Source: Candidatus Oleimmundimicrobium americanum (GTDB lineage: Bacteria > Actinomycetota > Aquicultoria > UBA3085 > Oleimmundimicrobiaceae). Taken from it: a stretch of DNA of 64,000 nt. Shown here in pieces: positions 455 to 61,414 of this stretch. The notes under the pieces were generated by a model that saw only the letters and a program-made list of their open reading frames with translations, was not told the origin of the DNA and ran no database searches. The stretch is taken from assembly GCA_002366545.1 (NCBI GenBank), contig DFBH01000074.1, positions 1,033 to 65,032 of the forward strand, read 5' to 3'. The translations under genes were made by a program, and so were the position numbers. Each line of letters begins with the position of its first letter. Positions within the stretch are counted from its first letter, which is position 1.

Positions 455-591
455 CTTTCCATTATTTGAATCAAAACCTCTTTCTCGCCCGGCTCACCTA
501 TATCAAAAAGAACATCTGCCGCTACATGCCCAAGTAAGCTACCGCACCAGGTCAACCACTTGTTTGTAGCACCAATCACCCATATCTCTCC

Positions 592-1896
592 TTATTTGAC
601 TATAACAACAGGCACTCCGACTGAAACTCTGGGGTAAAGATCAATTACATCGCTTGGACGCATCCTTATGCACCCGTGCGAAGCGGCCCTACCTATCGAC
701 CAAACTTGAGGGGTGCCATGGATTCTTATGCCGGAAGCAGAAATATTTAAAGCCCTCGGCCCAAGAGGATTCCCCGGCCCCGGCGGTATAAATGGCGGCA
801 TATCTTCAGACCACGACTTGTTCGGATTATACCAGGTAGGCTTCATCCTTTTTGCAGTTATTTTGTAATTTCCAAGAGGCGTAGGATGTCTCGGAGACCC
901 TACCGCAACCCCGTAAATTTTTACCACCAATCCCCCTTTGTAAAGATATAACTGTCTCTCGGAAATATCTAAAATCAGCCGAGTGCTGTTAAGTTCAAAC
1001 GACCATTTTCTGCCGTCTTTATTCCCGGCAACGTCAACAATTTCCACCATTACTTCATGCTCACCATTAGCAAGGGGTGGTGGTTTACACTTAAGCATCA
1101 TGATTTTTGGGTCAAATTCATAATCCGTCTTTCCGCCATCAACCCAAACATTAATTGAAGAAATTTTATAATTTTCCTCCAAGTTAACCTGGATTATCGG
1201 AGCATGCTCTCTTACAACCGAATTCTCGTCCGGGAAAACACTCAATATTTTTGGAGGAGATGCATCAAAGATAACCGGAATTTTTTTGCTCCAAGCATTT
1301 CCGGCCTTATCAACTGTTTCTAAAACCAATTCATTTTCTTTCTCAGGCAACCTCCATATATCAAGCACAAAATTTCCGTTGGCATCAACCCCGCCAAACG
1401 GCAATTTTTCGCCATTTAAAAAAACAGCCATTTGAATATCGGGTTCGCTTTTACCTTTAAGATTAACTCTAGAGACCGGCGTAGCTACAACTCCATTAAA
1501 ATTATTGAAAGTTACTTCGGGGGCTATTGTATCAATAACAAAAGACCACTTCAATTTGATCTTTTTAGAAAATAAGCAGCGACACAAAAGATCAACCTCC
1601 GCAACGTGCTCTCCTTCAAACAACCTCTGAGAAGAAGAATAAATAAAACCATTTGGGTCTGTGCCCACAGATGGGATAACGTCCTGATCGTCTATTTCAA
1701 ACCTCACAAGTTCCAAGCTCGTGAAGGGAGCCAAAGTTTTTACAGAGATGGTCGGATTAAAATTGGAAATTACTTTCCCGTCCGAAGGACTAATGTGTAT
1801 AAAAGAACGCCCCAAGCCGTAAAGAAGCGCCCAAACCAAAACCGATAAAACAGTTATTCCGCCAAGCAAATATATTATTAACTTTTTTCTCTCCAT
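592..1896 (-). CDS. L,D-transpeptidase family protein (YkuD domain) with N-terminal signal anchor and Ig-like repeats
   Basis: The C-terminus has 'GIRIHGT...ASHGCIRM', the catalytic His/Cys signature of L,D-transpeptidases. The N-terminus has a hydrophobic TM segment. Confidence 0.7.
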   Translation of the reverse strand: MERKKLIIYLLGGITVLSVLVWALLYGLGRSFIHISPSDGKVISNFNPTISVKTLAPFTSLELVRFEIDDQDVIPSVGTDPNGFIYSSSQRLFEGEHVAEVDLLCRCLFSKKIKLKWSFVIDTIAPEVTFNNFNGVVATPVSRVNLKGKSEPDIQMAVFLNGEKLPFGGVDANGNFVLDIWRLPEKENELVLETVDKAGNAWSKKIPVIFDASPPKILSVFPDENSVVREHAPIIQVNLEENYKISSINVWVDGGKTDYEFDPKIMMLKCKPPPLANGEHEVMVEIVDVAGNKDGRKWSFELNSTRLILDISERQLYLYKGGLVVKIYGVAVGSPRHPTPLGNYKITAKRMKPTWYNPNKSWSEDMPPFIPPGPGNPLGPRALNISASGIRIHGTPQVWSIGRAASHGCIRMRPSDVIDLYPRVSVGVPVVIVK

Positions 1897-2064
1897 AATA
1901 CCTCTGCATAATTAAGATTTTAAAACATTATACCCTTTAATAACCACTTGAAAAGCTTTTATCTTCATTTAAGATTATCGTTCTATTCTGAGAGAAGGAT
2001 TGTTGACCTCAGATGTCGAAATCACAAATTTATATGCATAAATAATTCGGAGGGGGATAACTTT

Positions 2065-4146
2065 ATGGGTATTGAAAAAACAACAACGAGGAAAATTAGG
2101 AATGTCGGTATAACCGCACACGGTGGAACAGGAAAAACTTCCCTCAGTGAGGGAATGCTGTTCAATTCCAAAAACATAAGCCGTTTAGGCAAAGTGGATG
2201 ATGGCTCTACTGTATCCGATTACGACCCCGAGGAAATTAAAAGAAAGATATCAATAAATGCAGCCTTGACGCCGGTGGAATGGGAAGAAAACAAAATTAA
2301 CTTAATTGACACCCCCGGTTATGCTGATTTTATCAGCGAGGTAAAAGCATCTTTACAAATATCCGACGGAGCAATTATTTTAGTAGATGCACTTATGGGT
2401 GTCGAAACCCAAACCGAAATAGTCTGGAAAATGGCTAATGAAAGAAATCTGCCAAGATTGATATTCGTCAACAAAATGGATAAGGAAGATGCCAATTTTG
2501 AGAAAGACCTGGAAAGTTTGAAAAGCACATTAGACAACTCGGTAACAGCCGTTCAGCTTCCGCTTGGCACAGACAAAGAATTTAAAGGCGTAATTGACTT
2601 GGTTAAAATGAGAGCATTAACCTTCAATAACGGGAAAATAATCGAAGAAGCCATTCCCGAAGAACTTCAACCAACTGTAGAAAAATATCTAAAAATCCTT
2701 ACCGAGGCAATTGCGGAAACAGACGATGACCTCTTAACCAAATATTTAGAAGAGGAACCCTTAACGCCTGAGGAAATCATTTCGGGCTTAAAAAAAGCTG
2801 TAAAGAAGGGTAAAATTATTCCCGTTTTTTGCGGTTCCGCTCTTAAAAATATAGGCATACAACCTCTGCTCGACGCAGTAATTGATTATCTTCCGTCCCC
2901 CGATGAAATGCCTGAAGTAAAGGGCAAAAATCCAAAAACCAATGAAGAAGAAGTGCGAAAACCCATTGAGGATGAACCGTTTTGCGCTCTGGTATTTAAG
3001 ACAATATCAGACCCTTATATCGGCAAACTTAATTTTGTCAGGGTCTACTCGGGGACACTAAAAACCGATAGTCATATATATAACGCAACCAATAAAAACA
3101 AAGAAAAGGTTGGTCACTTATTCCAAATGCAGGGGAAAGAACAAAAAGAAATAAAAGAAGCGGGAGCAGGAGATATCGTAGCCATCCCCAAACTTTCCCA
3201 CACCCATACAGGAGATACTCTTTGCGATGAATCAAGGCCGATTGTTTTAAAGAAAATCGATTTTCCTGAGCCTATTTTCTCAATCGCAATAGATACAAAA
3301 AGAAAAGAGGATGAAGAAAAACTCGCCACTTCACTAACAAAACTAGCGGAGGAAGACCCAACGTTTACGATAAGAAGAGATCACGATGTTGGCCAGACAA
3401 TTATCTCTGGCATGGGGAATGTTCATTTAGAAGTAAAAATAAACAAACTTAAGCAAAAGTTCGGCGTGGAAACAATAAAAGAGGAGCTAAAAATAGCGTA
3501 TAAAGAGACGATTCGTAAAACATCAAAGGTACAAGGAAAATACAAAAAACAGTCGGGCGGTCACGGTCAATATGGAGATGTATGGATAGAGTTTCGACCT
3601 CTTCCCCATAGAGGAGGATTTGAATTCGAAGATAAAATCTTCGGTGGTTCAGTTCCCAGACAATACATTCCCGCCGTCGAAAAGGGGCTTAAAGAAGCCC
3701 TTAATGAAGGCATACTGGCCGGTTATCCGGTTGTCGACATAAAAACAATACTTTACGATGGCTCATACCACCCGGTTGACTCATCCGAAATGGCCTTTAA
3801 AATAGCAGCCTCGATGGCCTTTAAGAAGGGCTTGCTTGAAGCCAATCCGGTAATTTTAGAACCCATTTTAAACGTCGAGGTCATCGTGCCTGAAAGTGAT
3901 ATGGGAACTATCATGGGAGATTTAAACAGCAAGCGAGGAAAGATTCTTGGCATGGAGCCCATCGGAAACGGCTACGAAAGTGTAAGAGCCCAGGTTCCGG
4001 AAGCAGAAATGAAAAGATACGCGGCCGAGCTTCGCTCGATGGCCCATGGACGCGCCACTTTCTCCGTTAAATTCGCCAACTACGAAGAGGCCCCTCATGA
4101 CATACAGGAAAAAATAATTGCAGAGGCAAGGGCGGAAAAGAAGTAG
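2065..4146 (+). CDS. elongation factor G family GTPase (EF-G paralogue)
   Basis: 'GITAHGGTGKTSLSE' G1 motif, DTPG and NKMD G-motifs, and an EF-G domain IV/V-like C-terminus. GGAGGGGG lies 7 nt upstream of the ATG at 2065, so the ORF-track start at 1948 is probably too long. Confidence 0.8.
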   Translation: MGIEKTTTRKIRNVGITAHGGTGKTSLSEGMLFNSKNISRLGKVDDGSTVSDYDPEEIKRKISINAALTPVEWEENKINLIDTPGYADFISEVKASLQISDGAIILVDALMGVETQTEIVWKMANERNLPRLIFVNKMDKEDANFEKDLESLKSTLDNSVTAVQLPLGTDKEFKGVIDLVKMRALTFNNGKIIEEAIPEELQPTVEKYLKILTEAIAETDDDLLTKYLEEEPLTPEEIISGLKKAVKKGKIIPVFCGSALKNIGIQPLLDAVIDYLPSPDEMPEVKGKNPKTNEEEVRKPIEDEPFCALVFKTISDPYIGKLNFVRVYSGTLKTDSHIYNATNKNKEKVGHLFQMQGKEQKEIKEAGAGDIVAIPKLSHTHTGDTLCDESRPIVLKKIDFPEPIFSIAIDTKRKEDEEKLATSLTKLAEEDPTFTIRRDHDVGQTIISGMGNVHLEVKINKLKQKFGVETIKEELKIAYKETIRKTSKVQGKYKKQSGGHGQYGDVWIEFRPLPHRGGFEFEDKIFGGSVPRQYIPAVEKGLKEALNEGILAGYPVVDIKTILYDGSYHPVDSSEMAFKIAASMAFKKGLLEANPVILEPILNVEVIVPESDMGTIMGDLNSKRGKILGMEPIGNGYESVRAQVPEAEMKRYAAELRSMAHGRATFSVKFANYEEAPHDIQEKIIAEARAEKK

Positions 4147-6831: not shown

Positions 6832-7084
6832 CAAAGTGCAGAGTATAGAATATGGAGTATGGATTATAGAAAAAACCAATAAACTACCGCTTGCCCGCAG
6901 GCGCGGTAATTAAAAATTAAGAAAGCTTTTATTCAGAGGATAATTCTTTGAATTGAAAGCAACTTAGAATTTTATCTTTTAGGGTTTGGTTTTAAATTTT
7001 AAATTTTAAATTTTTCTATATAGTTTTTCTTTTTTATATCTTAGTTCTTCATTTTGACTTACTACCGACTGTAAGGAGGATATT

Positions 7085-7276
7085 ATGGAGTGCACATTTG
7101 AAGAAAATAAAAAAAGTTGCCCTTGCACATACGAGCCCTGCAGCAGAAAGGGTAAGTGCTGCGAGTGCGTGGCTTATCATAGAAATAGAGGAGAGCTTCC
7201 CGGTTGCTTTTTCCCACCCGAGATTGAGTGCATCTATGATAGATCGATAGAGAGATTTGTTTCGCTCTATAAGTAA
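7085..7276 (+). CDS. small cysteine-rich protein (8 Cys in 63 aa), function unknown
   Basis: Strong SD: AAGGAGG 7 nt upstream of the ATG. Cys pattern is CxC-x4-C-x6-CCxC...C...C. Confidence 0.5.
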
Positions 7277-7365
7277 ACTGGCTGATAGCTTATAGCATAT
7301 GGCTGATGCCTGCCCGCCTCTGGCGGGGCTTATGACGTATGACAAATGGCTGGTAGTTAAGAATG

Positions 7366-7460
7366 AAGGGTAACGGGTAGAAAGGAAAGAGAGCTGGCGA
7401 CATAATAACATAGCGGCTTAGAAACCAAGTAGCCACGTAGCCAAGAAACTAAGGAATCAA
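7366..7460 (+). repeat. dispersed ~100-nt intergenic repeat element, copy 1 (sense relative to the upstream gene)
   Basis: GGGTAACGGGTAGAAAGGAAAGAGAGCTGGCGACATAATAACATAGCGGCTTAGAAACCAAGTAGCCACGTAGCCAAGAAACTAAGGAATC. Near-identical copies lie at 28764-28863, 53721-53813 and 61291-61395 on the opposite strand. Confidence 0.7.
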
Positions 7461-7687
7461 AGTAGAGACATGGTTAAAAATTGGGAGCACGGAGCTTGGA
7501 GTATGAAAAAACAAATCAACCAACTAGCGAACTACCGACTGGCAGACAGGTACAATAGACACGGAAATTTAAAATGTCTTTAAGAATTTTAAACTTTTTC
7601 ATTTTTATATATCGTTTTTAACTTTTATTTTTTAATTTTTAATTCGAACTTGCTCCCGACTGTCAACTAACAAACTACCGACTAATA

Positions 7688-11768: not shown

Positions 11769-12161
11769 CCCCTTTAAAAAATATCAGGTTTATATGATTA
11801 TTCTATCTTTAAAAAAATAAAATGTCATTAACATAACGGCGCCATAACATACCAAATTTCTGAGAATCAAAATAATATTATCTTAATAACTCTTAGAGAC
11901 GGCCACTTTGTGAAGCTTTTCCCCATTTCCACAGTTTTATCCACAACATATTGAGGATAAAATCTAAAAATCACTATATATCGTACGTTGCTCGTAAGTG
12001 ACTTTCTAGTAAATAAATGCACAAAAGTAATATTATTAGCAATGGACCCGGAATATAAATACAAAGCATATAACTTCCTAATAGATAATTCCAAGACCTA
12101 CCGGTTCTTAAATATCAGTAGCCGAAATATAGGACCAAGAACGACCGGCAACCGCTCCCGG

Positions 12162-14858
12162 CTATTTACTCCCAACCTTATCTATTCTCACTGCACATAC
12201 CTTAAACTCGGGAATCTTTGATACCGGATCGAGTGCGGGGTTGGTGAGCATATTTATTGGAGATTCCTTGAAGTGGAAGGGCACAAATATGGTCCCCTTG
12301 GGTATGTGTGAAGTTATACGTGCTTTAACTTTTACTTTTCCTCGGCGCGAGGAAAGTTCGACCCAATCATTATCTTTTATTTTAAGTTTTTTAGCATCTA
12401 CAAAATTTATCTCAACTCTGGCTTCCTTGCAAACCTCATTAAGACCCATGGAACGCCTGGTCATCGTGCCGGTGTGAAAGTGATACAGAAGTCTTCCTGT
12501 GATTAGGATAAACGGATAATCTTTATCGGGCTGCTCAGCAGGTGCTTTGTATTCAACGGCATGAAACTTGCCCAGTCCCCGCGTAAATTTCGCTGTATGA
12601 AGAATCGGTGTCCCCTGATGCGTTGCATCCGGACACGGCCACTGAACACTTTCCTCGCTTACCCTTTCAAATATTATTCCACCATAGGTTGGGGTAATAC
12701 TTGCAATCTCATTGGTAATCTCACCAACCGCAGCGTAATTCATATCATAACCCATGGCCTTCGCCAAATTGGAGATTATCAGCCAATCCGGTCGGGAGTT
12801 GCCAACCGGGGCAATGGCCCTTCTTACTCTCTGAACTCTTCTTTCGGTATTTGTAAACGTTCCATCCTTCTCAGCAAAAGTAACTCCCGGCAACACAACG
12901 TCGGCAAATTCAGCCGTCTCAGTTAAAAACACATCCTGAACAACCAAAAAATCCAACTTCTTAAAAGCCTCTTTCACGTGGTTTAAATCGGGGTCCGAAA
13001 GCATCGGGTTTTCGCCCATAACATACATCGCTTTAACTTCGCCACGCAAAACAGCATCCATCATCTCGGTGGCAACTAACCCGGGCTTTTCTGGAAGCTT
13101 TACTCCCCAAACATCTTTACATTTCTTAATAATCCCCAAATCACAGATGTTTTGATATCCGCTCACACAACCGGGAAGTGCCCCCATATCACAAGCACCC
13201 TGAACGTTGTTTTGTCCGCGAAGCGGATTTACCCCCGTTCCCGGCCTCCCAATATTTCCGGTAAGCATCGCCAAATTGGCAACGGAGAGAACATTGTCTG
13301 TACCCGTAGTATGCTGAGTGATGCCCATGGAATAAAAGATTGCTCCTTTTTCGGCCGAAGCGAATAATCTTGCTGCCTCCCTTAAAGAATCAGCGGGAAT
13401 ACCTGAAATATTCTCAACTTCCTCGGGCGTATATTTTGAAACCGTCTTCTTTAACTCTTTATAATCTTCCGTTCGTTTATCGATAAAATCCTTATCTTCC
13501 AAGCCCTCTTCGATTATCACGTTCATAAGCCCGTTTAAGACGGCAACATCGGTTCCCGGTTTTTGTGAAAGCCACATATCAGCATACTCCGTCAGTCGAA
13601 TCTCTCTGGGATCAATTACGATAAGCTTTACCTCAAAATCGGAGACCGCCCTCTTCATCTCAAGAGCAACTATGGGATGATTTTCGGTGGTATTTGAGCC
13701 AATAACAAGAATCACATTGGCCTCGTGTATATCGGCGATAGAATTCGTCATCGCTCCGCTTCCAAATGCTTTGACCAGACCGGCCACGGTTGGAGCGTGT
13801 CACAAGCGAGCACAGTGGTCGATATTGTTTGTGCCAATCACCGCCCTCATAAATTTCTGCATCAGATAATTTTCTTCGTTGGTACACTTTGCTGAGGAAA
13901 GACCGGCAATCGCGTCAGCGCCGTGTTTTTTCTTTATCTTTGAAAACTTGTCTGCAACAGTTTTAATCGCCTCATCCCAAGAAACTTCAACAAGTTTCCC
14001 GTCCTTTCGAACCAACGGAGAAGTAAGCCTGTCGGGATGGTTCACAAAGTCATAACCAAAACGGCCTTTTACACAAGTATTCCCCTTATTCACACCGCTC
14101 TCGACATCGGCTGAAACACAAATAATCTCTCCGTTTTTGATTTGGAGTTCCAACTCACACCCACAACCACAATAAGGACAGACTGTCTTAACTTTCTCTG
14201 TCTCCCAAACTCGCCCCTTGTATCTGCTCATCTTCTCGGTTAAAGCACCGGTGGGGCAGGTTGATATACACTGTCCGCAAAGTTCACATTTTGTTTCAAT
14301 AAGTGACTTGTCATAAGGAGTTGTTACTACCGAATCAAAACCTCGATTTGCGAAAGTATACACTTTATTCTGTTGAATCTCTTCACAAATGCGAACGCAG
14401 CGACCGCAAAGGATGCACTTGTTTGGGTCTCTTTCAATCAAGGGATTATAGTCTTCTATGGTGTAGATATGTTTTTCACCTTTAAACCGATTCTCTTCTA
14501 TTCCCAATTCGTAAGCTAAATCTTGAAGTTGACATTGGCCGGCGCTCTCACAAGTCAAGCAACTTAACTCATGATCGGAAAGTAAAAGCTCAACTATCGT
14601 TCTCCGTATTTTATAGAGAGGAATGGTATTTGTCCTAACAGCCATTCCATCGCCAACCTTGGTTGCGCAGGCAGGCAAAAAATTCCTCGCCCCCTCAACT
14701 TCGACGAGACAAACTCTGCAGGCTCCATAAGACTTGAGCCGCGGATCGTGGCAGAGCGTTGGGATTTTTATTCCATTTTCTTTAGCAACCTCAAGTATGG
14801 TTTGACCTGGTTCAGCTTCAATTTTTTCTCCATTTATTGTCAAATTAATTTTAGACAT
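12162..14858 (-). CDS. fdhA: formate dehydrogenase alpha subunit, selenocysteine-containing (in-frame UGA at 13800-13802)
   Basis: The N-terminal ORF (13800..14858) ends '...[11 protein letters not shown]' at a TGA. The same frame continues '[21 protein letters not shown]...', which matches the FdhF-type 'CARV-U-HGPSVAGL' Sec active-site motif. The N-terminus has a NuoG-type 2Fe-2S plus 4Fe-4S region. The C-terminus has a molybdopterin oxidoreductase domain. Confidence 0.85.
13750..13799 (-). promoter_or_regulatory. putative bacterial SECIS element immediately 3' of the UGA-Sec codon
   Basis: The mRNA after UGA reads CACGCUCCAACCGUGGCCGGUCUGGUCAAAGCAUUUGGAAGCGGAGCG. It has CGCUCC/GGAGCG complementarity and a GGUCUG core resembling the fdhF SECIS apical region (from memory). 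The fold has not been computed. Confidence 0.4.
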
Positions 14859-19266: not shown

Positions 19267-19289
19267 TTAAATCCTCACATTCATTGATA

Positions 19290-19530
19290 TACAACCCGGC
19301 CTTACGGCCTTGATAGCTGATGGCCCAAACTATAGACAATCAGCAAATTAAAAAATAAAAGTGAAAAAAGAAAAACTATAGATAAAAATTTAAAATTGAA
19401 AACCCAGCCCTAAAGGGCAGCCCTTTAAACCAGCTTTCAAAATCAGCCCTTAAAGCAGCCCCTATCCGTTAGCCAAAAGCTAAAACATAAAGACCAATAA
19501 CTAATAGCCATCTGCTATATGCCATCAGCC
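19290..19530. repeat. low-complexity intergenic block with 5 tandem ~13-nt CAGCCCTTAAAG-like units
   Basis: CCCAGCCCTAAAGGG/CAGCCCTTTAAAC/CAGCTTTCAAAAT/CAGCCCTTAAAG/CAGCCCCTATCCG at about 19397-19460, flanked by GCTGATGGCC / GCCATCAGCCATTAGCC words. Confidence 0.5.
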
Positions 19531-19531
19531 A

Positions 19532-22014: not shown

Positions 22015-22055
22015 AAAAACCTCTTTAGTCGGTAGTCTGTTTTTAGTCAAATTAA

Positions 22056-22300
22056 AAAATAAAAATTTATAACGATATAGAAAAATTTAAAATTTAAAAC
22101 CAAATCACAAAAGATAAACTTCTTAAAATGTTTTTAAAAACTTTTTTAATTTTTATCTATAGTTTTTCGTTTTTCATTCTCCATTTTTCACTTAACTCTA
22201 CCCCATACCCGTTTTTGCTCTCTGCTCTAACTATATTTTTCCTGGCAGCTGACAGCTGGTGGCTGTTTTTACCCTATACCCTTATACCCGTTACCTTTAT
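22056..22300. repeat. low-complexity AT-rich intergenic block upstream of hdrC with shared word modules
   Basis: TTAAAATTTAAAA words, CTCTCTGCTCTAAC, CCCTATACCCTTATACCCGTTACC (shared with other blocks), and the GTCGGTAGTC module at the hdrC 5' end. Confidence 0.45.
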
Positions 22301-27072: not shown

Positions 27073-28422
27073 TTATGCGCTTCGACTTTTAAGATAAGCG
27101 GGGATATCTCCGGCCTCCCGTGGGCCAACTTCTATTTTCCAATCCGGGAGTTCTTCTTCCAGTTCACCGCTTATTTGAGCTACGCATCCCGGTATTATCA
27201 ATTTTCTGTGTTTAACTTTGTCGGTAATCCCACAACGCTTCATGAACGGCCCGATACTTTCGGGCACAAATTTACCGGCTCCCCAAGCAGTTAAAACCGA
27301 TAATCCTTCCACGTCCATTATGCAAATCCAAGATGGAATTTTGCTCGCCTCAACCTCACCTGAAACGGTGAAATAAGTTAAGGAGAAATTGGTGGTAAGA
27401 AGCACCGGGGAATCCTCATCCGGTTCCCCGATGGGATAGATTCCCTCTTCAACCTGCATTGGCTTCTGTGGATCGGTATAGATATTTTGCCTTAAGACAT
27501 ACAGTGGAAGTGCCTTCCAGGCTTCGAGGTCGCTTAAGACGATAATCCCTGCATATTTCATGATACCAACGCCGGCAGCCACCGCTTCCATGTAAGGATC
27601 ATCATACATCTCACAAGGAAAGGTTATTATCGGATACCCAAGGGGTTTAAATTTTTTCTTCAAAGCCGCACGCCTTATAAAAGTAGCATCTCTTAAACTG
27701 TCTTTTATATTTCTTGAACCGGGGTCCAACACTATATCTTTGATCCCCTGTGCGGTTACTTTTTCTACCAACTCGGAAAGAATGTTTAAATCTTTAGCCG
27801 CAACCGCCAAAGGACAATTCTCCTCTTTGGCAAGGGCAGCCATTTGCTCAAAGTTGCCTTCATTTGCCGCATAAATAAGAGGTTTGGTCTTAGCGCAAAC
27901 CGAAAGAGCAGCCTTCATCATCTCGGAATTGTCGGTTATTAACACCAAAGGAAACTCGGTTCCCATGGCTTTCTTAACAAGCTCGACAAATTTAGCCGAA
28001 TCATTTGAAGACGATTTAACTGCCACCAAATCAGCCCGAAGAAATTGACCTACTCTCTCAAATTGAGAACTCTTTAACTGAGCAAGTTTTTCACCGATTT
28101 CCGACTCGCTCATTCCATCATCTACAAGAACAGCAAAGCCCGGCTGATGATAAAAGGTTTTTTCGTGACGAAAAAGCACCGCCTCCTCACCAATTTTTAA
28201 GGCCTTATCGCCAACACCTATCGTAACAAGGCGGATAGGAGGAGCCGAAGCCTCGGATAGCTCGGCTTTGGTTTCTTCGGATACATAAGGACACGCATCC
28301 AATTGTGCTTTTCCCATCGCAAGTTTCATGGCAAAGGCAAGACAAGTGGGAACACCACATTCCCCGCAATTTTTTTGAGGTAATTTTTTGTAAATATCAA
28401 GTCCGGTTAACGCCATATACAT
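27073..28422 (-). CDS. acsC: corrinoid iron-sulfur protein large subunit AcsC (CdhE-like)
   Basis: N-terminal 'CGECGVPTCLAFAMKLA...CPY' [4Fe-4S] motif characteristic of AcsC. Length is 449 aa. RBS is AAAGGAGAG. Confidence 0.85.
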   Translation of the reverse strand: MYMALTGLDIYKKLPQKNCGECGVPTCLAFAMKLAMGKAQLDACPYVSEETKAELSEASAPPIRLVTIGVGDKALKIGEEAVLFRHEKTFYHQPGFAVLVDDGMSESEIGEKLAQLKSSQFERVGQFLRADLVAVKSSSNDSAKFVELVKKAMGTEFPLVLITDNSEMMKAALSVCAKTKPLIYAANEGNFEQMAALAKEENCPLAVAAKDLNILSELVEKVTAQGIKDIVLDPGSRNIKDSLRDATFIRRAALKKKFKPLGYPIITFPCEMYDDPYMEAVAAGVGIMKYAGIIVLSDLEAWKALPLYVLRQNIYTDPQKPMQVEEGIYPIGEPDEDSPVLLTTNFSLTYFTVSGEVEASKIPSWICIMDVEGLSVLTAWGAGKFVPESIGPFMKRCGITDKVKHRKLIIPGCVAQISGELEEELPDWKIEVGPREAGDIPAYLKSRSA

Positions 28423-28424
28423 CT

Positions 28425-28763
28425 CTCCTTTTAGTCAATTTTAGTTTAAAGTTAAAGGTTTAAAGCTGATAGCTCGTTCCCTTACATTCACTCGATGGCC
28501 AGTGGCCCACTCCCCGCCCATTGGCGGGTTCGCTCAATAGCTGACTCTCTACTCCATCAGTCGGTAGTCTCTTAGTGGGGAGTCGGGAGCTTGTTGGCCA
28601 GATTGCTAGTTTTGCTATACTCTATATTCCATACTCCATATTCTGCTCGCTCTCTGCTCTATGCTCCATGCTCTTTTCACTTTTAAATTTGCAATTTGCA
28701 TTTCTTTTTTACCCTTAACCCGTTACCCTATTAGTCGGGAGTCTCTTAGTTGGGAGTCGGGAG
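28425..28763. repeat. low-complexity modular intergenic block (short tandem 'word' repeats, strongly strand-asymmetric)
   Basis: Contains CAGTCGGTAGTCTCTTAGTGGGGAGTCGGGAG (twice), CCATACTCCATATTC, CTCTATGCTCCATGCTC, GCAATTTGCATTTC, CCCTTAACCCGTTACCC. The plus strand is almost G-free for more than 100 nt. Confidence 0.6.
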
Positions 28764-28863
28764 TTATCTGGTTTCTTAGCTTCTTGGCTACGTAGCTACT
28801 TGGTTTCTAAGTTTCTAAGTCGCTATGTTTCTATGTCACTATGTCGCCAGTTCCCTTTACCCT
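28764..28863 (-). repeat. dispersed intergenic repeat element, copy 2 (between acsB and acsC)
   Basis: Reverse complement of copy 1 with internal word duplications (TTTCTAAG x2, CTATGT x3). GC hairpin at 28885-28906 then abuts the acsB stop. Confidence 0.7.
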
Positions 28864-28916
28864 CTCAACTTTCTATCTGCCATTCGCCCCGCCAGAGGCG
28901 GGCAGGCATCTACTAA

Positions 28917-31118
28917 TTAGAACATCGGTGGCATCTCTAAAGCCGGATGACCCACTTTCTGCAGATAAGCTATAACTTCTTCCTCTGTACTTGCTACAGT
29001 TTCATCCGCTATTTTGTCAAAAAAGTCCGGCATGCCTTCTTCTTTCGCACGTTTCTGAAGCTCAAAGCGAAGAACATCTTTTAGCTCTTTTGGCATCCAG
29101 ACAACCCTCTTTAAACCCCCATCAGCAGAAATAAACTTCTTGCTCGTTATATATTGACGACCTATCCCAATAAACCCGGGGAGCTGAACCCCACCGCCAA
29201 CAGTGCCAGCGAGGGTCGAGAACTTCATTCCGCAGGGTGTCATTCCGGGAAACTCCCTATTTACTATCATCACTCCATTTGCCATCGGAAGAACCGCCAC
29301 CACACACTCAAAACAACCACACGAAGTCATTGGTTCATCCATCATGGAGTAGGCATTAAAATGCTCGATGGCTTGGTTAGATTTTCCATACACAAATTTA
29401 TTGACGTTTTCCCACTGCCCTTTAACCGCATCTATAATCTCACCCTTTTTAACCGGTTGGTTGGGACCCGTTGGATTAATTTCATAAGCCGCCTTGCCAT
29501 CGAGCCAATTGTAAGCCCCACAAAGACCCAACCTTTCAGGGGTAATTATACACACGTGATTTGGGGCAAAGCTCTGACACAATGTGCAGGAATAAAAAGT
29601 ATCGACGCTTTCATCATTCATGCCCCGCACTCTTTCATCTCTGTGACAGTAGGTTTTTCTCGCTTCCTCCATCATCTGGTCAACCTTTTCAGGATCGGTG
29701 TAGATTGTAACTTGAACCTTATCCACAATTGCGGGGTAATCCGCGACAAGTTTTGCGATAAGTATCTTCCCAAAGTGATGAAATTTAAAACCAGCATTCT
29801 TTGCCTTTTTGCTAACTCTTGCCCATATAATGTCACGCTGGCCCATATGAAATATTCCCTCAGCACCATTAATCATGTGATGAACTTGTCTCTCCAGAAC
29901 CGATTCAAAATCCTCTTGCATCTTTCTGCCAGCAACATCTATCACTAAACCTATGGGAAGTCTTTCGCCCTCTTTGATATCATCTATATCTTTACCAACC
30001 ACCTCAACCTTGCCGTTTTCCACCTCATTCATCTCTTTCATCCTCAAGAATTCAAAGGCATGTGTCTTTGTTCCGCCAAATTCTACATAGGTATCTTCTC
30101 TCCTAATTCTCTCTCCCTCGAAAGCAGAGCCAAAAGAAACGGGAATATCAACTTTGGTAACTTGAATCTTAAGTCCCCTTACCTCAATTGCCCTTTCAAC
30201 CAGCTTATCGTGAGGAATGTTTGACACAACGTGCTCATAAGTACAGATGCCTGTTGGAAGAATCTGGGGAATATCGGTATCAGCAATAGTCGGAAAGCCA
30301 TAATTTACAGCCGCTACTGCTTGAGCATATTTTTCATCTTCGACCTCGCCTAAAGCCAGAACAAAGGCAAAAATTCTATTCTTGTTGTAAAGTAATACCT
30401 TTCTAAAGTCTCCGGGCTCAACCCCACCGAAGGAAAGCGCGGCGCGAGTTGCAAAACCCGCGGAAAAAACAGTCGCGGTAATATCCTTGCCGAAGGGAAC
30501 GAGACGGGTTTCCCAGCCCATCTGGATACCTTCCTCTTTGAGTTGCTCAGCCATGCTTTTTCCATCGGCCGAGGCCGACATGAAGACATAAATATTCTTC
30601 TCTTGAAGCTCTCGAGCAATCTTTACCGCTATTTCATTTGTGGGAGCTGCTCCAACGCATGCGGCAAAACCGGGCGCTGAGCCATCAACAAATTCGACAC
30701 CTCTTTCTCTCATTATCACGTCATCAGCCGCACCCAACCAAAGATTATCATCAGTTGGTTCCGATGACATTGTATAAGGAGGCGATTCTACATACTTAAT
30801 TGCTTCAATAATTTCATCCATAAAAAGCGTCGCCATACCGGCATCCAAAGCGGGAGCCAGATACGGTAGCCAGACTTTCTCTGACGGAACAGGAGGAAGT
30901 AAACTCTTGGAATATGCCAAAACCTTCTCCATGTCTCCAAGGGTGGAAACCGCCATCCCGGTAATTGCATAAATCACGGGCAGATAGTACCCTGTGTTTG
31001 GAAACTCCACCTTTTTGTCGGGTCCATATTTCTCTAAAGCTTCTTTAAGATTTTTTTCCGCCCTCATGGCTATCTTGTGGGCGCCCCTTATGGCAGCCGA
31101 AGCAATAATCTTAGACAA
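28917..31118 (-). CDS. acsB: acetyl-CoA synthase AcsB (CODH/ACS beta subunit, CdhC)
   Basis: 'DTFYSCTLCQSFAPNHVCIITPERLGLCGA' and 'MTSCGCFE...' A-cluster ligand motifs. Length is 733 aa. Confidence 0.9.
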   Translation of the reverse strand: MSKIIASAAIRGAHKIAMRAEKNLKEALEKYGPDKKVEFPNTGYYLPVIYAITGMAVSTLGDMEKVLAYSKSLLPPVPSEKVWLPYLAPALDAGMATLFMDEIIEAIKYVESPPYTMSSEPTDDNLWLGAADDVIMRERGVEFVDGSAPGFAACVGAAPTNEIAVKIARELQEKNIYVFMSASADGKSMAEQLKEEGIQMGWETRLVPFGKDITATVFSAGFATRAALSFGGVEPGDFRKVLLYNKNRIFAFVLALGEVEDEKYAQAVAAVNYGFPTIADTDIPQILPTGICTYEHVVSNIPHDKLVERAIEVRGLKIQVTKVDIPVSFGSAFEGERIRREDTYVEFGGTKTHAFEFLRMKEMNEVENGKVEVVGKDIDDIKEGERLPIGLVIDVAGRKMQEDFESVLERQVHHMINGAEGIFHMGQRDIIWARVSKKAKNAGFKFHHFGKILIAKLVADYPAIVDKVQVTIYTDPEKVDQMMEEARKTYCHRDERVRGMNDESVDTFYSCTLCQSFAPNHVCIITPERLGLCGAYNWLDGKAAYEINPTGPNQPVKKGEIIDAVKGQWENVNKFVYGKSNQAIEHFNAYSMMDEPMTSCGCFECVVAVLPMANGVMIVNREFPGMTPCGMKFSTLAGTVGGGVQLPGFIGIGRQYITSKKFISADGGLKRVVWMPKELKDVLRFELQKRAKEEGMPDFFDKIADETVASTEEEVIAYLQKVGHPALEMPPMF

Positions 31119-48247: not shown

Positions 48248-48439
48248 TATACTAAAAAAATGTGTGGCTTGCCCACAAGAAAAATTATTTTAACATTCCC
48301 TTTTTTTAGTTAAAATAATCTCGGCCTTTTTGATTACCTCAATTTCGAGTCTAACTCGCTTCTCGTCCCTCATTTCGCTAACTTGAGGGAAACAAAAGAA
48401 TTACCTTGCACCAAGGAAATTTAAACGACCTTTATCTTG

Positions 48440-48607
48440 GAAGGATGTAAATTACAGAACTTTGTGGGCTTGACTCTCCGTTTTCAAAAAATTCATCCTT
48501 CCAATGTTGGTTGCTCTTACTATGCTCTATACCCCATCTGCCATCTGTTATTTGCCACCTGCCATCAGCCACCTGCAATCCGCCCCGCCAGCGGCGGGCA
48601 GGCATCA
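48440..48607. repeat. low-complexity intergenic block ending in a GC hairpin, 3' of the HydS-GGDEF gene
   Basis: CCCCATCTGCCATCTG, TTGCCACCTGCCATCAGCCACCTGC, then CCGCCCCGCCAGCGGCGGGCAGGCATC abutting the stop codon. Confidence 0.5.
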
Positions 48608-50386
48608 TCAAACACCCTTCGCTATGCATGTTTTGTTACGGCCACCCTTCTTGGCTTGATACATTGCTTGATCCGCTCTATCAAATAAAAGCGGAGAATC
48701 CTTTATCCCCAAGGAAAAAGAGGCAATCCCCAAACTCAAAGTTATCGGAATGCGTTTTCCTTCAAAAATAAAATCAAATTCTTCCGTCTTGCTGCGTAAC
48801 TTTTCCGCAACCGCAAAAGCTTCCGTTTTTGTAATTTGAGGTAAAATTATCGCAAATTCGTCCCCTCCTTGACGAGCGGGCATGTCGGCCTCGCGCAAAT
48901 TCTTGAGCAATATTTTGGCAACCATTTTTAAAACCTCATCACCTCTTAGATGCCCATACGTATCGTTTATTAACTTAAATCGGTCGACATCGAAAACTAT
49001 AACGGAGAGCGCTGAGCCATAGCGTTTAGCTCTATTTACTTCCCTCTCAAGGGAGTAGGTAAAACCATAATGGTTTAACAATCCAGTAAGTGTATCTCTC
49101 ATGGACATTTTTTTTGCATCTTCTTTTATTCGGCTCATAAGCTTTTTTTGATAGGGAAAACATGTGCTCCAATCCGTCATTCCTTTGTAGATTGCAAGCG
49201 CATTTTCGCTACAGGTTTTATGACCACAAGCACCGCAATTGAGCTCGTCTTCTGGAGAAGAAATTTCTGCCTTTACCATCAATTCCCTTAACTCCTCTTT
49301 TGTCGGAGAAACCGTATCAACCGCTTTATTTGCAAAAGTTCTCCTCAGCCCAATTTCAGGCAAATTGGGAACTATCTCAGAAAAATCAGACCATTTAATT
49401 TTTCTTCTTTCTTTACTGTAATTTTGTTGTATTTGTTTTTTCAAAGCATACAAACTTCGTCCTCCGGCAAGCCCATTTCTCATAATAGGTCCATCAATAC
49501 AGCCGTTACAGCCCAAAGCGTCCACAAAGCATGCTCGGACTTCGTTTGTATTTAAGGCTTCCGCTAGAGCCTGAACACTATCTGCTCCTCTAGCCACCTT
49601 AAAATTACGACTAATTGTATTTATTTTTTTCATAAACTGCTTAGGCAGTCCCCCCGGCAAAGAATTTACACGGGGAACTCGTTCAACCGGCTCCAGTTTT
49701 GCTCCCGTCAACGACCGAAGATCTATTTCCGAGTCTTCAAACATCTTTTTTAGTTCGGAAAAGGTTATAACTACATCAATAGCACCCTTAGCAGATTCAT
49801 CCATCGCTTCGGCTCTTTGAGCAACACAAGAGGTTATATACATAGTGTGAGCTTCTTCATACAACGCCTTACAGAGACGCCCCTGCGCAATCATAGGAGA
49901 TACAATCGGCGCCAGGATAGAGACGAGATCGGGAAAATACTTTTCTATAAAACTCACAACAACAGGACAGGTGGAACGAATTATCGGGAAATCCTCGTCT
50001 TGGCTCAAAATCCTCATATACTCGGCGGCTACAAGCTCTTCCCCCAAGATTGTTCCCTCAACAACATCGAAGCCAAGTTTGATAAGACCGGCAGCAATTT
50101 CGGTTGAGCCAAACGGCTGAAAAGCAACGAGATATTCAGGGGCCAAAATTGCAATAGCTTTACCTCTTTTTTTAGCAAGACGATATGCTCTTTTTGTGTT
50201 GTCTTTAAGTTTCAATGCCCCCCGAGAACAAGCTAAAACACACTCACCACAATATATACACGTTTCGTGCATAACCTCAACGTGTCCATCATTTACCTTT
50301 ATGCTCTTAACAGGACAAGCACGAACACAACTATAGCACTCTTTGCATTTATCAAAACTACCTTCTACAACTTCTATGAGCTCCAT
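48608..50386 (-). CDS. sensory-type [FeFe]-hydrogenase-like domain (HydS-like) fused to a C-terminal GGDEF diguanylate cyclase domain
   Basis: N-terminal 2x[4Fe-4S] ferredoxin. Degenerate H-cluster motifs: L1 'RSTCPVV' (single Cys), L2 'TSCVAQRAE', L3 'DALGCNGCIDGP'. An exact Cx2Cx4Cx16C accessory motif ('CGACGHKTC...16...C'). A C-terminal GGDEF domain: 'RQGGDEFAI', 'RYGG', 'DRFK'. Confidence 0.7.
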   Translation of the reverse strand: MELIEVVEGSFDKCKECYSCVRACPVKSIKVNDGHVEVMHETCIYCGECVLACSRGALKLKDNTKRAYRLAKKRGKAIAILAPEYLVAFQPFGSTEIAAGLIKLGFDVVEGTILGEELVAAEYMRILSQDEDFPIIRSTCPVVVSFIEKYFPDLVSILAPIVSPMIAQGRLCKALYEEAHTMYITSCVAQRAEAMDESAKGAIDVVITFSELKKMFEDSEIDLRSLTGAKLEPVERVPRVNSLPGGLPKQFMKKINTISRNFKVARGADSVQALAEALNTNEVRACFVDALGCNGCIDGPIMRNGLAGGRSLYALKKQIQQNYSKERRKIKWSDFSEIVPNLPEIGLRRTFANKAVDTVSPTKEELRELMVKAEISSPEDELNCGACGHKTCSENALAIYKGMTDWSTCFPYQKKLMSRIKEDAKKMSMRDTLTGLLNHYGFTYSLEREVNRAKRYGSALSVIVFDVDRFKLINDTYGHLRGDEVLKMVAKILLKNLREADMPARQGGDEFAIILPQITKTEAFAVAEKLRSKTEEFDFIFEGKRIPITLSLGIASFSLGIKDSPLLFDRADQAMYQAKKGGRNKTCIAKGV

Positions 50387-53497: not shown

Positions 53498-53720
53498 TTT
53501 TACTTACCCCCGATTTAGTTATTGGCCCTTCTCAAATTATCATTCTCCATTTTTCATTTAACTATACCCTTTATCCATTACCCTTATTTTGCCATCTGCC
53601 ATAAGCTGCTTTGCAGCTAATTGTAAAATGCAAATTGCAAATATTAAATTGCAAAATTGTTTTCCTTTTTGGTTTTAAAACTTTAAAATCTCCAATTTCC
53701 CTGCCTGCCGGCAGTCGGAA

Positions 53721-53813
53721 GTTATCTGGTTCCTTAGTTTCTTGGCTACGTGGCTACTTGGTTTCTAAGTCGCTATGTCACTATGTTGCCAGCTTCTCGT
53801 TACCCTATACTCA
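53721..53813 (-). repeat. dispersed intergenic repeat element, copy 3 (between lysC and asd)
   Basis: TTATCTGGTTCCTTAGTTTCTTGGCTACGTGGCTACTTGGTTTCTAAGTCGCTATGTCACTATGTTGCCAG plus a GGGTAA-type flank. About 90% identical to the other copies. Confidence 0.7.
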
Positions 53814-55095: not shown

Positions 55096-57381
55096 CTAAC
55101 TTTCACCTGACAGACAATCAAAAGAATGGTGGTTTGCAACAAGTTTGAGCCTATCGCTTAGGTTACCGAGACTAACCGATAGAAAATTGCTTAAAAGATG
55201 CTCGCCGGTCATCTGTTTGATTAGAGAAGTTAAGGCCGAAAGAAATTTCTTATAAACTTTTATCTCTTCATCAAAAGACACGTGGTCATCTTCTGCAATT
55301 TCAACTCTGCCATTATTAATTTTCAAATTGAGCTCTTCTCTTAATACAAGCTTTTTAATTTCAATGTCTAGATTTCGCATCATCTTCTGTCCGCCTATCT
55401 TGGCATATTGTTCCAATAAAGAATTAGCAATGTTTAAAAAAGTTTCCCTTACCGCTCGCTTTTCGGCCTCTTTGCCCGCCAACAAGTCTTTATATAAATC
55501 ATCATTAGAAAAAATTTTAATTTTGCCTTTCTCAAAAACCGAAAGAAAAGCCTTCGCTACATCCGGGCTAAACTGAGAACCCGACCCACTTTTTACCTCC
55601 TCCATAGCCTCAACAGCCATTTTGGCTTTATGATAAGGCCTATCTGATACCATTGCTTCAAAGCTATCGGCCACCGTAAGAATTCGAGCACCCAATGGTA
55701 TTTCATCACCTGCTAATCCGCCAGGGTAGCCCAAGCCATCATAACGTTCGTGGTGATGACGCACAAGGGATACAATGTCCCAAGGAAATTCAATCGGAGA
55801 TAGTATATTAGCTCCGATTAAAGAATGTGTTTGCATAATTATCATCTCATCAAAAGTAAACTTGCCCGGCTTAAGAAGTATCTTCTCGCTGATGCCAATT
55901 TTCCCGATATCATGTAACGTCGCCGCCACCCGGATTCTTTCCTTTTCAAAATCACTCAATCTCATCTCTTCAGCAACCACAACTGCGTAATCTGTAACCC
56001 TTTCCGAATGACCTCGAGTGTACATATCCTTAGCATCCACCGCCTCAGCCAGAGCGCTTATAACGCCAAAGAAATTGTTTTTAATTCCTTGGTAAAACCT
56101 TGAATTTTCGAGAGCCATCGCTGCTTCGTTTGCCATTGCTACAAGGAGTTCAAGGTCATCTTGGTCAAAAGTTTCACTGCCAATTTTGTTTGTCACATTA
56201 AGCACGCCGATTATCTTGCCCTTTACTTTTAAGGGGGCAACAATTGCATCTTTTACCTCTTCCTTTGCATAAATTGGTTTAAAACGAGGATCATTTATCC
56301 CATCGATAAGAAGAAGTGGCTCACCTCTTTTGGCCACCCAACCGGCGATTCCATCTCCCAATTTAAGCTTCGTACTTTTTATAACCTCCTCGCTTAAATC
56401 ATGTGCCGCTTTGACAACCAACTCGCCCTTTTTCTCATCAAGCATCATCAAGGAGGCCCTCTCGGCTCCCATAATGCTAGTAGCCGCATCCAAAATTGTT
56501 TTCGAAAGTTTCCTTTCGTTAAGGGAAGAGCCAAGCGCTCTTCCCACACTTGTAACGCAGGCTTTTGCTTGACGCTGGGAAGCGTCAAGCTGACTTATTA
56601 ATGAAGAAAGTTTCTCGGTCATCATATTGCACGTTTCAAACAACTCGCCGAACTCATCCTTGGATAAAATTTTTGCCCTCTTTTTGAAGTCGCCTTTTGC
56701 CACCTGTTGAGCGGTACCCCTTAGAATATCAATTGGACGATATACAAACTTTGATAAAGCTACCCAGTACAAAAGAAAACTCACTAAAGTAGCTACAAAT
56801 GCCAGCAATAAATTTCGCAAATAAACTGCATCTATGGCTTTAGCTAACTCGCTGAGGTTAGAATATATGTGAATAGCTCCCAGCAATTTTCCTTCGCCAA
56901 AAAGTGGCATCACAATCTCTTGAGCCCTGGGCCTTCTGTCGAAAAAACTAAAGGACTCAACTATTTCGCCTTCTTCTTCCCCTTTAGTTCTAAAAGCCCA
57001 AACATGTTCGATAACTTTTCTATCTTTTATAGCGTAAACTAAGCATTCATCTTCATCTTGCTTACCTGTCTCTTCGGAATCAAGAGAGGTAAGTATTTTC
57101 CCATCCCGGCCGACCACCCGAAAAAAAACAAAATCTTGATTAAAAGAATCAATGAAATTAATTAAGTGTCTCTTCTCGGAAGAGGAAAGCTCCTCATCTT
57201 TGAGAAAATCCTCAGTATGATGCTTAATAGAATTTGCGATAATAAGATTTTTCTCTTTTACATCTTTCAGCCAGCTATTTTTTTGCCATTGTATTGAAAA
57301 ATAAGTTAGGGTAGCAGTAAGCATAAAAATTAATCCCGCCATCACCAAACCGAGCTTCCAGCGCAGCTTTAATTTAAGCAT
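55096..57381 (-). CDS. membrane signalling protein with HAMP, GAF and HD-GYP (c-di-GMP phosphodiesterase) domains
   Basis: N-terminal TM plus a periplasmic domain and a second TM/HAMP. A GAF domain. 'LHDIGK' plus 'HHERYDGLGYPGGL' give the HD-GYP signature. Confidence 0.75.
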   Translation of the reverse strand: MLKLKLRWKLGLVMAGLIFMLTATLTYFSIQWQKNSWLKDVKEKNLIIANSIKHHTEDFLKDEELSSSEKRHLINFIDSFNQDFVFFRVVGRDGKILTSLDSEETGKQDEDECLVYAIKDRKVIEHVWAFRTKGEEEGEIVESFSFFDRRPRAQEIVMPLFGEGKLLGAIHIYSNLSELAKAIDAVYLRNLLLAFVATLVSFLLYWVALSKFVYRPIDILRGTAQQVAKGDFKKRAKILSKDEFGELFETCNMMTEKLSSLISQLDASQRQAKACVTSVGRALGSSLNERKLSKTILDAATSIMGAERASLMMLDEKKGELVVKAAHDLSEEVIKSTKLKLGDGIAGWVAKRGEPLLLIDGINDPRFKPIYAKEEVKDAIVAPLKVKGKIIGVLNVTNKIGSETFDQDDLELLVAMANEAAMALENSRFYQGIKNNFFGVISALAEAVDAKDMYTRGHSERVTDYAVVVAEEMRLSDFEKERIRVAATLHDIGKIGISEKILLKPGKFTFDEMIIMQTHSLIGANILSPIEFPWDIVSLVRHHHERYDGLGYPGGLAGDEIPLGARILTVADSFEAMVSDRPYHKAKMAVEAMEEVKSGSGSQFSPDVAKAFLSVFEKGKIKIFSNDDLYKDLLAGKEAEKRAVRETFLNIANSLLEQYAKIGGQKMMRNLDIEIKKLVLREELNLKINNGRVEIAEDDHVSFDEEIKVYKKFLSALTSLIKQMTGEHLLSNFLSVSLGNLSDRLKLVANHHSFDCLSGES

Positions 57382-61258: not shown

Positions 61259-61290
61259 TAGTCATTTAGTCGGTAGTCTCTTAGTGGGGA

Positions 61291-61395
61291 GTTATCTGGT
61301 TCTTTAGTTTCTTGGCTACGTGGCTACGTGGTTTCTAAGTCGCTATGTTGCTATGTCGCCAGCTCTCTTCCCCTTTTACCCATCACCCTTATTTG
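61291..61395 (-). repeat. dispersed intergenic repeat element, copy 4 (between ybaB and recR)
   Basis: TTATCTGGTTCTTTAGTTTCTTGGCTACGTGGCTACGTGGTTTCTAAGTCGCTATGTTGCTATGTCGCCAG plus a flank, preceded by the TAGTCGGTAGTCTCTTAGTGGGGAG module. Confidence 0.7.
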
Positions 61396-61414
61396 CTATT
61401 CGCTGTCCGCAATA

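Follow-up and report, generated by a model that had tools for sequence, protein, structure and literature searches.

The window analysed here is a stretch of 64,000 nucleotides (64 kb) of contig DFBH01000074.1 from Candidatus Oleimmundimicrobium americanum, whose lineage (Actinomycetota, Candidatus Aquicultoria) comprises uncultured acetogenic actinobacteria; a Wood-Ljungdahl gene cluster is encoded in it, and proteins that fall into 90% clusters with those of the window bear the name Candidatus Oleimmundimicrobium sp. An earlier note, made from the letters of the window, had pointed to a GC-rich hairpin present in three copies, each shortly after a stop codon. In this report, we examined these copies, their surroundings and their counterparts in other genomes. 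The principal result is that the hairpin is a repeated, extragenic sequence, mostly placed no more than 50 nucleotides (nt) from a stop codon, in sense orientation and without a run of uridines (U-tract), and that close strains differ by its gain, loss or replacement. The three sites are made up as follows:

7085-7276, + strand: gene for a cysteine-rich DUF6485 protein of 63 amino acids (aa; Pfam), upstream of hairpin 1
7308-7329, + strand: hairpin copy 1, GCCTGCCCGCC-TCT-GGCGGGGC, 31 nt past the DUF6485 stop; the next downstream gene is convergent
27073..28422, - strand: cdhD/acsD, corrinoid iron-sulfur protein subunit, the next cistron past the spacer with hairpin 2
28886-28907, - strand: hairpin copy 2, TCT loop, 9 nt past the acsB stop, within the 494-nt acsB-cdhD spacer
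28917-31118, - strand: acsB, acetyl-CoA synthase (Pfam), upstream of hairpin 2
48255..48277, - strand: canonical terminator-like site, TGTGGGCAAGCCACA then CATTTTTTTA, a hairpin followed by T7
48582-48603, - strand: hairpin copy 3, GCT loop, 4 nt past the TGA stop of the hydrogenase-like GGDEF gene
48608-50386, - strand: gene for a Fe-hydrogenase-like/GGDEF protein (Pfam), upstream of hairpin 3

Both strands of the window were searched with the pattern GCCYGCCCGCCNNNGGCGGGGC, allowing up to three mismatches. The sequence GCCTGCCCGCC-NCT-GGCGGGGC was found three times, always with 0 mismatches, where 0.02 copies are expected by chance; none of 100 shuffled sequences contained three or more. These are the copies of the earlier note, whose coordinates were one base off for copies 2 and 3, and its remark that the third loop differs is borne out (TCT, TCT and GCT). 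The gaps of 31, 9 and 4 nt fall within the range of 2-35 nt that it gave, all three copies lie on the sense strand of the upstream gene, as it had stated, and Pfam agrees with its naming of the upstream genes as a Cys-protein gene, acsB and a HydS-GGDEF gene (DUF6485, AcsB and Fe-hydrogenase-like/GGDEF, respectively). Copies 1 and 3 precede convergent genes, and copy 2 stands between acsB and cdhD in the acs cluster. The 3' flanks of copies 1, 2 and 3 are TTATGACG, GAATGGCAG and GGATTGCAG, with no U-tract in any of them. The GC content is 40-46%.

The hairpin had been described as about 22 nt long. The repeat does have this length, but folding limits the paired part to CCCGCC/GGCGGG, six base pairs (bp) that are all GC and enclose a 3-nt loop (-11.7 kcal/mol). 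The consensus fold of 16 copies supports this 6-bp stem only, the flanks GCCUG and GC being invariant yet unpaired, and a hairpin paired over its full 22 nt was rejected, as it has no support in that fold. One further pair, C3:G21, is possible (C-G, U-G and U-A in three variants), on too few sequences. A second hairpin, with the same 6-bp stem and another loop and flanks, is found at the far end of the acsB-cdhD spacer, near the cdhD start:

28511..28531, - strand: AACCCGCC-AATG-GGCGGGGAG, -13.1 kcal/mol, fold z-score -3.1

This hairpin, with the core CCCGCC-AATG-GGCGGG (28513-28528), is identical in strains L123/L124 (L numbers designate sequences outside the window). The three copies and this hairpin are the only all-GC 6-bp hairpins of the 64 kb, and all lie outside genes judged real; an automatic mask of open reading frames (ORFs) had called two of the four 'coding' on account of ORFs that we judged spurious, such as 7049-7411(-).

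Copies beyond the window were sought in two collections. In the genome collection, the scan with the earlier pattern was swamped by chance matches in high-GC genomes and gave no genome-wide census; among the matches listed were L104 and L075, from one related metagenome-assembled genome (MAG) with the same flanking words, and copies from bacteria of the candidate phyla radiation (CPR). In the metagenomes, a more specific pattern searched by exact match returned 12 loci, a set biased towards identical copies; this way of finding outside copies inflates their identity and precludes a covariation test. Genes flanking the metagenome loci were assigned from ORF maps, partial Pfam/NCBIfam checks and called genes. 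By its enolase (84-86% identity to named relatives), L127 is Oleimmundimicrobium-like. The host contig itself (74 kb) has three hairpins in the 72 kb read, with none in the 8 kb beyond the window, and any genome-wide number is extrapolated. For the low-GC clade, window included, we counted about 14 copies in sense and 2 in antisense orientation, a stop being 50 nt or less away in about 10 cases, in keeping with the expectation that copies elsewhere would lie at gene 3' ends in one orientation. Arranged by position, the copies are:

Sense, 50 nt or less from the stop: window copies at 31, 9 and 4 nt; L125 at 9 nt; L126a at 47 nt; L132 at 14 nt; L135b at 19 nt; L136 at 8 nt
Sense, 50 nt or less from the stop: L141 past lemA at 8 nt (degenerate copy); L104 at 17 nt (past a remnant of the lemA 3' end)
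Sense, 50 nt or less from the stop: L127a, where the mazG ORF reads through the hairpin and ends at a TGA right after it
Sense, further from the stop: L075 at 140 nt; L131 at 326 nt; L141 past lysE at 382 nt; L126b
Antisense or inside an ORF: L127b (antisense); L129 (inside a degenerate polyprenyl-synthase-like ORF)

Two of these loci call for comment. The L104 copy looks antisense to its neighbours because of a rearrangement scar: compared with L141 (20790-20831), L104 (4840-4877) keeps only the last ~35 nt of lemA before the hairpin, next to the signal recognition particle (SRP) RNA and marR. In L129, a polyprenyl-diphosphate-synthase-like ORF, 1065-1736(-), contains the hairpin (1482-1503) together with its flanking words where the first DDxxD motif would be, with length unchanged, and has also lost the second Asp-rich motif; this ORF is a degenerate paralogue or a pseudogene.

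The same 22-mer is also met in more distant company. In another metagenome, it occurs at L133 (~7927) and L134 (1825-1846) together with GCTTAT/GCTGAT words. At both loci it is antisense to the adjacent genes, and a start codon that has no visible Shine-Dalgarno sequence follows 14-19 nt downstream of it; L134 belongs to the Omnitrophota by best protein hits (Sua5). The identical 22-mer with a TCT loop is present in low-GC MAGs of unrelated groups, including Doudnabacteria, Magasanikiibacteriota and Gammaproteobacteria (L049, L071, L099, L110, L128), without word arrays and, in L099 and L128, with U-rich tails like those of an ordinary terminator. At three Paceibacteria loci (L009, L013, L056), the 22-mer stands within a conserved multi-hairpin repeat. 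Three other identities were considered for the hairpin and set aside: a phage feature, as the scan of viral contigs gave one match only; a DNA-uptake sequence, since no copy lies in coding DNA (a weak argument); and a replication-oriented motif, judged unlikely from the fact that copy 1 is on the strand opposite to copies 2 and 3 while the GC skew keeps its sign.

When all copies are aligned on the hairpin, it proves to be a single module within larger intergenic arrays, which are polar and made of 7-8-nt words. The anchored consensus reads ...ATGGCWGAT, then GCCTGCCCGCCTCTGGCGGGGC, then TGATRGC..ATRGC..., with flanks that are 8-mer words of strict polarity. Seven spacers of the window are built in this manner, with an autocorrelation of 0.41-0.48 at lags 7-8, compared with 0.25 for coding sequence. 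The spacers, the arrays next to the hairpins and the copies of a dispersed element that shares these spacers are the following:

6832-7084, 7277-7687, 19267-19531, 22051-22300, 28423-28916, 53498-53813 and 61259-61414: array-built spacers of imperfect tandem 7-8-nt words
7277..7307, + strand: 8-mer word array, CTGGCTGATAGCTTATAGCATATGGCTGAT, from the DUF6485 stop to hairpin 1
7366..7459, + strand: copy of the dispersed element, downstream of hairpin 1
28720..28885, - strand: block past hairpin 2, with a GGCAGATAG word, GGGTAAAGGG words, the element core (28755-28852) and CCGACT words
48528..48581, - strand: word array past hairpin 3, GGATTGCAGGTGGCTGATGGCAGGTGGCAAATAACAGATGGCAGATGG, expanded or contracted in relatives
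53713..53794, - strand: copy of the dispersed element without hairpin, sense, with asd and the aspartate kinase gene on either side and the palindrome CTGCCGGCAG after it
61283..61390, - strand: copy of the dispersed element without hairpin, sense

The words of these spacers, oriented with the genes, are GGCWGATAG, GAGCATAG, GGAGTATAG, GGGTAAAG, CCGACTMC and TTGCAAAT. Read directly, the spacers have a recurring module order: GGCWGATAG words with or without the hairpin, GAGCATAG/GGAGTATAG words, GGGTAAAGGG words, a AAACCAGCAA...CAAGCT stretch, CCGACTCCCCACTAAGAGACTACCGACT words and then the next gene. The core of the dispersed element is ~95 nt long, with four copies in the window, all sense, and one in L127. 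In three of these five copies the hairpin lies 33-50 nt upstream of the core. At copies 1 and 2 the hairpin adjoins the element, as reported previously (core 33-36 nt downstream), and the suggestion of a composite of the two is upheld both by this co-occurrence and by the acsB site, where hairpin 2 and the block at 28720..28885 form one stretch of ~185 nt that has no counterpart in strain L123. Windows in which C exceeds G (0.9% of background windows) are found ~80-140 nt past the hairpin in several copies, in the CCGACT-word module. The possibility that the dispersed element is itself a structured RNA was rejected, its sense strand being essentially unstructured (z -0.8).

Spacers that adjoin gene starts have a further repeat, an AT-rich block of ~50-70 nt (AAATTAAAAAATAAAAGT...TATAG...AAATTTAAAA) in both orientations, which could be a shared promoter or binding region:

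6966-7054, 7588-7638, 19345-19414, 22049-22127 and 22143-22193: copies of the AT-rich block

Comparison of close strains indicates a turnover of these spacers. The acsB-cdhD spacer measures 494 nt in the window, 347 nt in L123/L124 and 104 nt in the sister species GCA_030651595.1 (L120), AcsB being at least 90% identical in all three. In the alignment, the ~185 nt proximal to acsB (hairpin and element) has no counterpart in L123, and the distal ~320 nt is identical; the hairpin at acsB is also absent from L120, and no copy with up to three substitutions was found in 43 kb of that sister species. At site 3, each of the four related strains that were examined retains the hairpin, and it is the arrays around it that differ: L138/L139 have 14 nt more before it, the window has ~45 nt extra after it, and a degenerate 20-nt GC insertion is found in L138/L139 only. 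At site 1, relatives lack the studied hairpin, and the stop is followed after 5-11 nt by a different GC hairpin: one strain has GCCTGCC-TACC-GGCAGGC, a second has GCCTGC-GGGTAG-GCAGG, and in one strain the studied hairpin is also present in nested form. At mazG, L127 has an intact copy, L147 a duplicated and degenerate one and L145 none; nested or duplicated hairpins occur in L140 and L147.

The earlier note had called the hairpin conserved; at these genes, what we observe is insertion/deletion polymorphism between close strains. Because it is present, absent or replaced between them, the hairpin is, by these comparisons, not an ancestral regulatory element of the genes concerned, and is more probably a repeat that has spread recently or been homogenised. 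Nonetheless, one GC hairpin or another recurs right after certain stop codons. A further family of GC hairpins, GCC(C/G)TGCCTACCGGCAGGC, occupies the same kinds of positions and replaces the studied hairpin at site 1:

~53700-53712 of the window: palindrome CTGCCGGCAG
L140, ~12,560-12,590 and 12,100-12,200; L141, 153; L143, 2168-2190; L147, 14713-14949; L075, 4420; L136, 2931: members outside the window

The question of whether the hairpin is an intrinsic terminator can be answered in the negative, as the earlier note had anticipated from the missing U-tract. None of the clade copies has a U-tract, the 3' flanks of ~15 copies being TGATRGC, TTATG, GAATGG and similar sequences; copy 2 lies inside the acs cluster, between acsB and cdhD; and the hairpin with T7 at 48255..48277, conserved in four strains, stands on the same strand ~330 nt downstream of hairpin 3. 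A terminator scan of the window reported none of the three hairpin sites, and the terminator-like sites that it did report are not enriched over shuffles. With Rfam 15, there was no window match at the gathering threshold, and none with an E-value up to 1 around sites 1 and 2. A literature search with the hairpin sequence and the genus found no description of the hairpin or of the arrays.

We tentatively regard as most plausible that the hairpin is a dispersed palindrome akin to the repetitive extragenic palindromes (REPs), acting as a protective stem-loop at the 3' end of transcripts. REP hairpins in E. coli protect upstream mRNA from 3' exonucleases. By analogy, the hairpin would spread or be homogenised as part of the word arrays and be transcribed into the 3' untranslated region (UTR) or the intercistronic spacer, where its stem-loop would block 3'-to-5' exonucleases; the 3' end of the upstream cistron would then be defined and protected, like those with E. 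coli REP hairpins, and transcription would stop further downstream of the hairpin. The name 'REP-type' used previously is apt as far as a repeated extragenic palindrome is concerned, and fails for inverted pairs, for a GTAG-like box and, at the genes of this kind seen in the clade, for the link with a REP-associated tyrosine transposase (RAYT), so that the label is to be taken as an analogy. A related architecture has been described at Rho-dependent 3' ends in E. coli, where stable stem-loops without a U-stretch have Rho utilization (rut) sites just downstream (Dar and Sorek 2018, PMC6061677).

Several observations weigh against protection as the role of the hairpin. The stem is short (6 bp), and the fold z-scores against composition-matched shuffles are ordinary (-0.7 to -1.8); because they are unremarkable, the signal is one of repetition and position, not of exceptional stability. 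No covariation was detected in the stem among 16 copies, its invariance deriving in part from pattern-based finding. All 22 bases, unpaired flanks included, and largely the loop, are identical across loci (~15 copies), which points to recent spread, gene conversion or protein recognition, as the blocking of an exonuclease would not require it. The first 60 nt past the hairpin are G-rich and C-poor, so that a rut-like stretch is not immediately downstream and the fit to the Rho-dependent 3'-end architecture is loose. In sister lineages the same genes lack the hairpin, which is therefore not required there. Finally, the rule of orientation is broken within the clade by L127b and L129 and, in the other metagenome, by L133 and L134.

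Alternatively, the hairpin could be a selfish or neutral miniature palindrome, mobile or recombining, with no RNA function, an explanation that we consider possible and yet lean against. Placement would then reflect where arrays insert or expand and are tolerated, which is up to the stop; moreover, the arrays are rich in TGA/TAG on the sense strand, so ORFs close at the array edge. Such a repeat would account for polymorphism of presence, absence and replacement between strains with nearly identical flanks, for identical 22-mers, unpaired bases too, at unrelated loci, and for a sister species without a copy in 43 kb. It would also fit the mazG ORF that reads through the L127a copy, the L129 copy inside a degenerate polyprenyl-synthase ORF, the nested or duplicated hairpins of L140 and L147, and the presence of the same 22-mer and words, in opposite orientation, in a contig of another phylum. 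Nevertheless, no cognate transposase was found for the hairpin, the RAYT-like genes of L104 and L129 being flanked by another inverted repeat, GGGGTCAGG(Y)CT, and neither terminal inverted repeats nor a clear target-site duplication could be seen, with only a possible AAT at acsB. A passive model for spacers of 150-500 nt is also exceeded by the 14:2 sense bias and by the clustering 4-31 nt from stops, and the finding of three different GC hairpins at site 1 in three strains hints at a preference for a hairpin as such at this place.

That preference for the sense strand right past stops, in a GC-rich stem-loop, could in principle betray a non-canonical ('I-shaped') or factor-assisted terminator or attenuator that tunes downstream cistrons, for instance cdhD relative to acsB. 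The host is an actinobacterium, proposals of U-less terminators in this phylum are mentioned in the introduction of PMC3993855, and canonical terminator-like sites are not enriched in the window. In vitro, however, mycobacterial RNA polymerase does not terminate at U-less hairpins, even when NusA and NusG are present (PMC3993855), the stem has only 6 bp, copy 2 is placed between genes for core acetyl-CoA synthase subunits that are separated in the sister species by 104 nt and no hairpin, and a canonical terminator is available ~330 nt past copy 3; we give this explanation very little credence. Equally doubtful in our eyes is a protein recognition site in DNA or RNA, the reader of which might be, for example, an array-handling recombinase or nuclease, or else an RNA-binding protein by which 3' UTRs are marked, and to which the stem-loop would present the GCCUG and GC flanks. 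The invariance of unpaired flanks and loop in ~15 copies from several loci and samples, a second phylum included, and the strict polarity relative to the flanking words speak for it; against it stand the lack of a candidate protein, the part that exact-match scans have in the invariance, and the existence of diverged copies (L126b, L127b, L141, L147). A more ambitious proposal, which we hold to be improbable, joins several of these elements: the hairpin would belong to an undescribed modular '3'-UTR cassette', non-autonomous, horizontally spreading and of fixed polarity, which targets the first bases past stops, whose unpaired flanks are read by a dedicated protein, and which is common to Actinomycetota/Aquicultoria and Omnitrophota, the bare 22-mer being reused as a terminator stem in CPR bacteria.

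Two features of the window away from the hairpin sites were recorded in passing. An in-frame TGA at 13800-13802(-) joins the ORFs 13800-14858 and 12162-13787 into a formate dehydrogenase alpha subunit with the motif CARL-U-HAPTVAGL, and is very likely a selenocysteine codon; one relative is called as one product of 898 aa (L140) and another as two ORFs (L141). At 56523-56590, there are two adjacent perfect hairpins of 9-10 bp, GGGAAGAGC-N5-GCTCTTCCC and GCTTGACGCT-N4-AGCGTCAAGC, within the coding region of a gene for a 761-aa GAF/HD protein that is missing from L138/L139.

A repeated, oriented stem-loop near stops offers a testable handle on 3'-end formation in this clade, its Wood-Ljungdahl cluster included. 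Moreover, intergenic spacers that are 100 to 500 nt long are reassembled from a small set of 7-8-nt words plus GC hairpins and differ between near-identical strains, an unusual turnover of non-coding DNA that could serve as a sensitive strain marker. Should the sharing with Omnitrophota reflect transfer, it would imply a mechanism of mobility for very small elements that the transposases seen do not explain.

Known repeats resemble this system in part. Among Actinomycetota, the mycobacterial interspersed repetitive units (MIRUs) are also located between the cistrons of operons, oriented with transcription and strain-variable in copy number; as described by Supply et al. in 1997, these units are reportedly 46-100 bp long, carry short ORFs overlapping the neighbouring genes and are not GC hairpins. 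The mobile GC clusters of yeast mitochondria and the Rickettsia palindromic elements are small palindromic insertions, GC-rich in a more AT-rich surrounding, that vary between strains and now and then lie in coding sequence. They belong to other hosts and have other sequences, and we know of no report that they prefer the sense strand just past stops. As for miniature inverted-repeat transposable elements (MITEs) and palindrome-associated transposable elements (PATEs) derived from IS200-IS605, empty and filled sites do exist for the hairpin, and neither a terminal inverted repeat nor a clear duplication could be seen; at each end of the acsB spacer stands a hairpin with the same stem (28886 and 28513), the distal one being present also in a strain that lacks the proximal one.

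The closest likeness is with the REPs, bacterial interspersed mosaic elements (BIMEs) and REP doublets forming hairpins (REPINs) of enterobacteria and pseudomonads, which are short, GC-rich, imperfect palindromes, repeated, extragenic, located in 3' UTRs or intercistronic spacers, U-less and strain-variable. The studied hairpin is likewise a short repeated extragenic palindrome (3 in 64 kb, outside real genes, and more in related contigs). All of its copies are singlets rather than inverted pairs, and the 5' flank is the GAT of the word ATGGCWGAT in place of a GTAG-like tetranucleotide. It differs further from REP/BIME in its strong single orientation to the upstream gene and in being embedded in arrays of 7-8-nt words. 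Genes for RAYT-like Y1 transposases with a C-terminal helix-turn-helix (HTH) are present in L104, at 280-1164(-), and in L129, at 1867-2802(+) (Pfam Y1_Tnp; for L129, NCBIfam REP_Tyr_transpos gives 75 bits against a cut-off of 80). At these loci, as scanned, the hairpin does not flank the RAYT-like gene; each gene is flanked by the inverted GGGGTCAGG(Y)CT repeats, which are absent from the window. The RAYT-like gene is itself mobile, since the window's own contig lacks it at the syntenic position (L143, 5907-6065).

With the protective stem-loops of E. coli at Rho-dependent ends (PMC6061677), the hairpin has in common its stability, the lack of a uridine stretch, the location just past the coding region and, in several copies, C-rich, G-poor sequence further downstream. 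The E. coli stem-loops are unrelated to one another in sequence, whereas here a single 22-mer is repeated, and the stretch in which C exceeds G begins ~80 nt downstream instead of immediately. The arrays, for their part, recall the short tandemly repeated repetitive (STRR) sequences of cyanobacteria and the TAACTGA repeats of Beggiatoaceae (PMC4679880), in that intergenic 7-8-nt words are oriented with genes and are common to distant lineages without an evident mechanism of transfer. Indeed, the arrays that surround the hairpin are STRR-like, being composed of tandem imperfect 7-8-nt units confined to intergenic DNA, a description that does not extend to the hairpin itself. The usual place of the TAACTGA repeats is shortly before a start codon, and no GC hairpin accompanies them (PMC4679880), whereas the arrays described here begin at stops, combine several word families in a recurring order and include a GC stem-loop.

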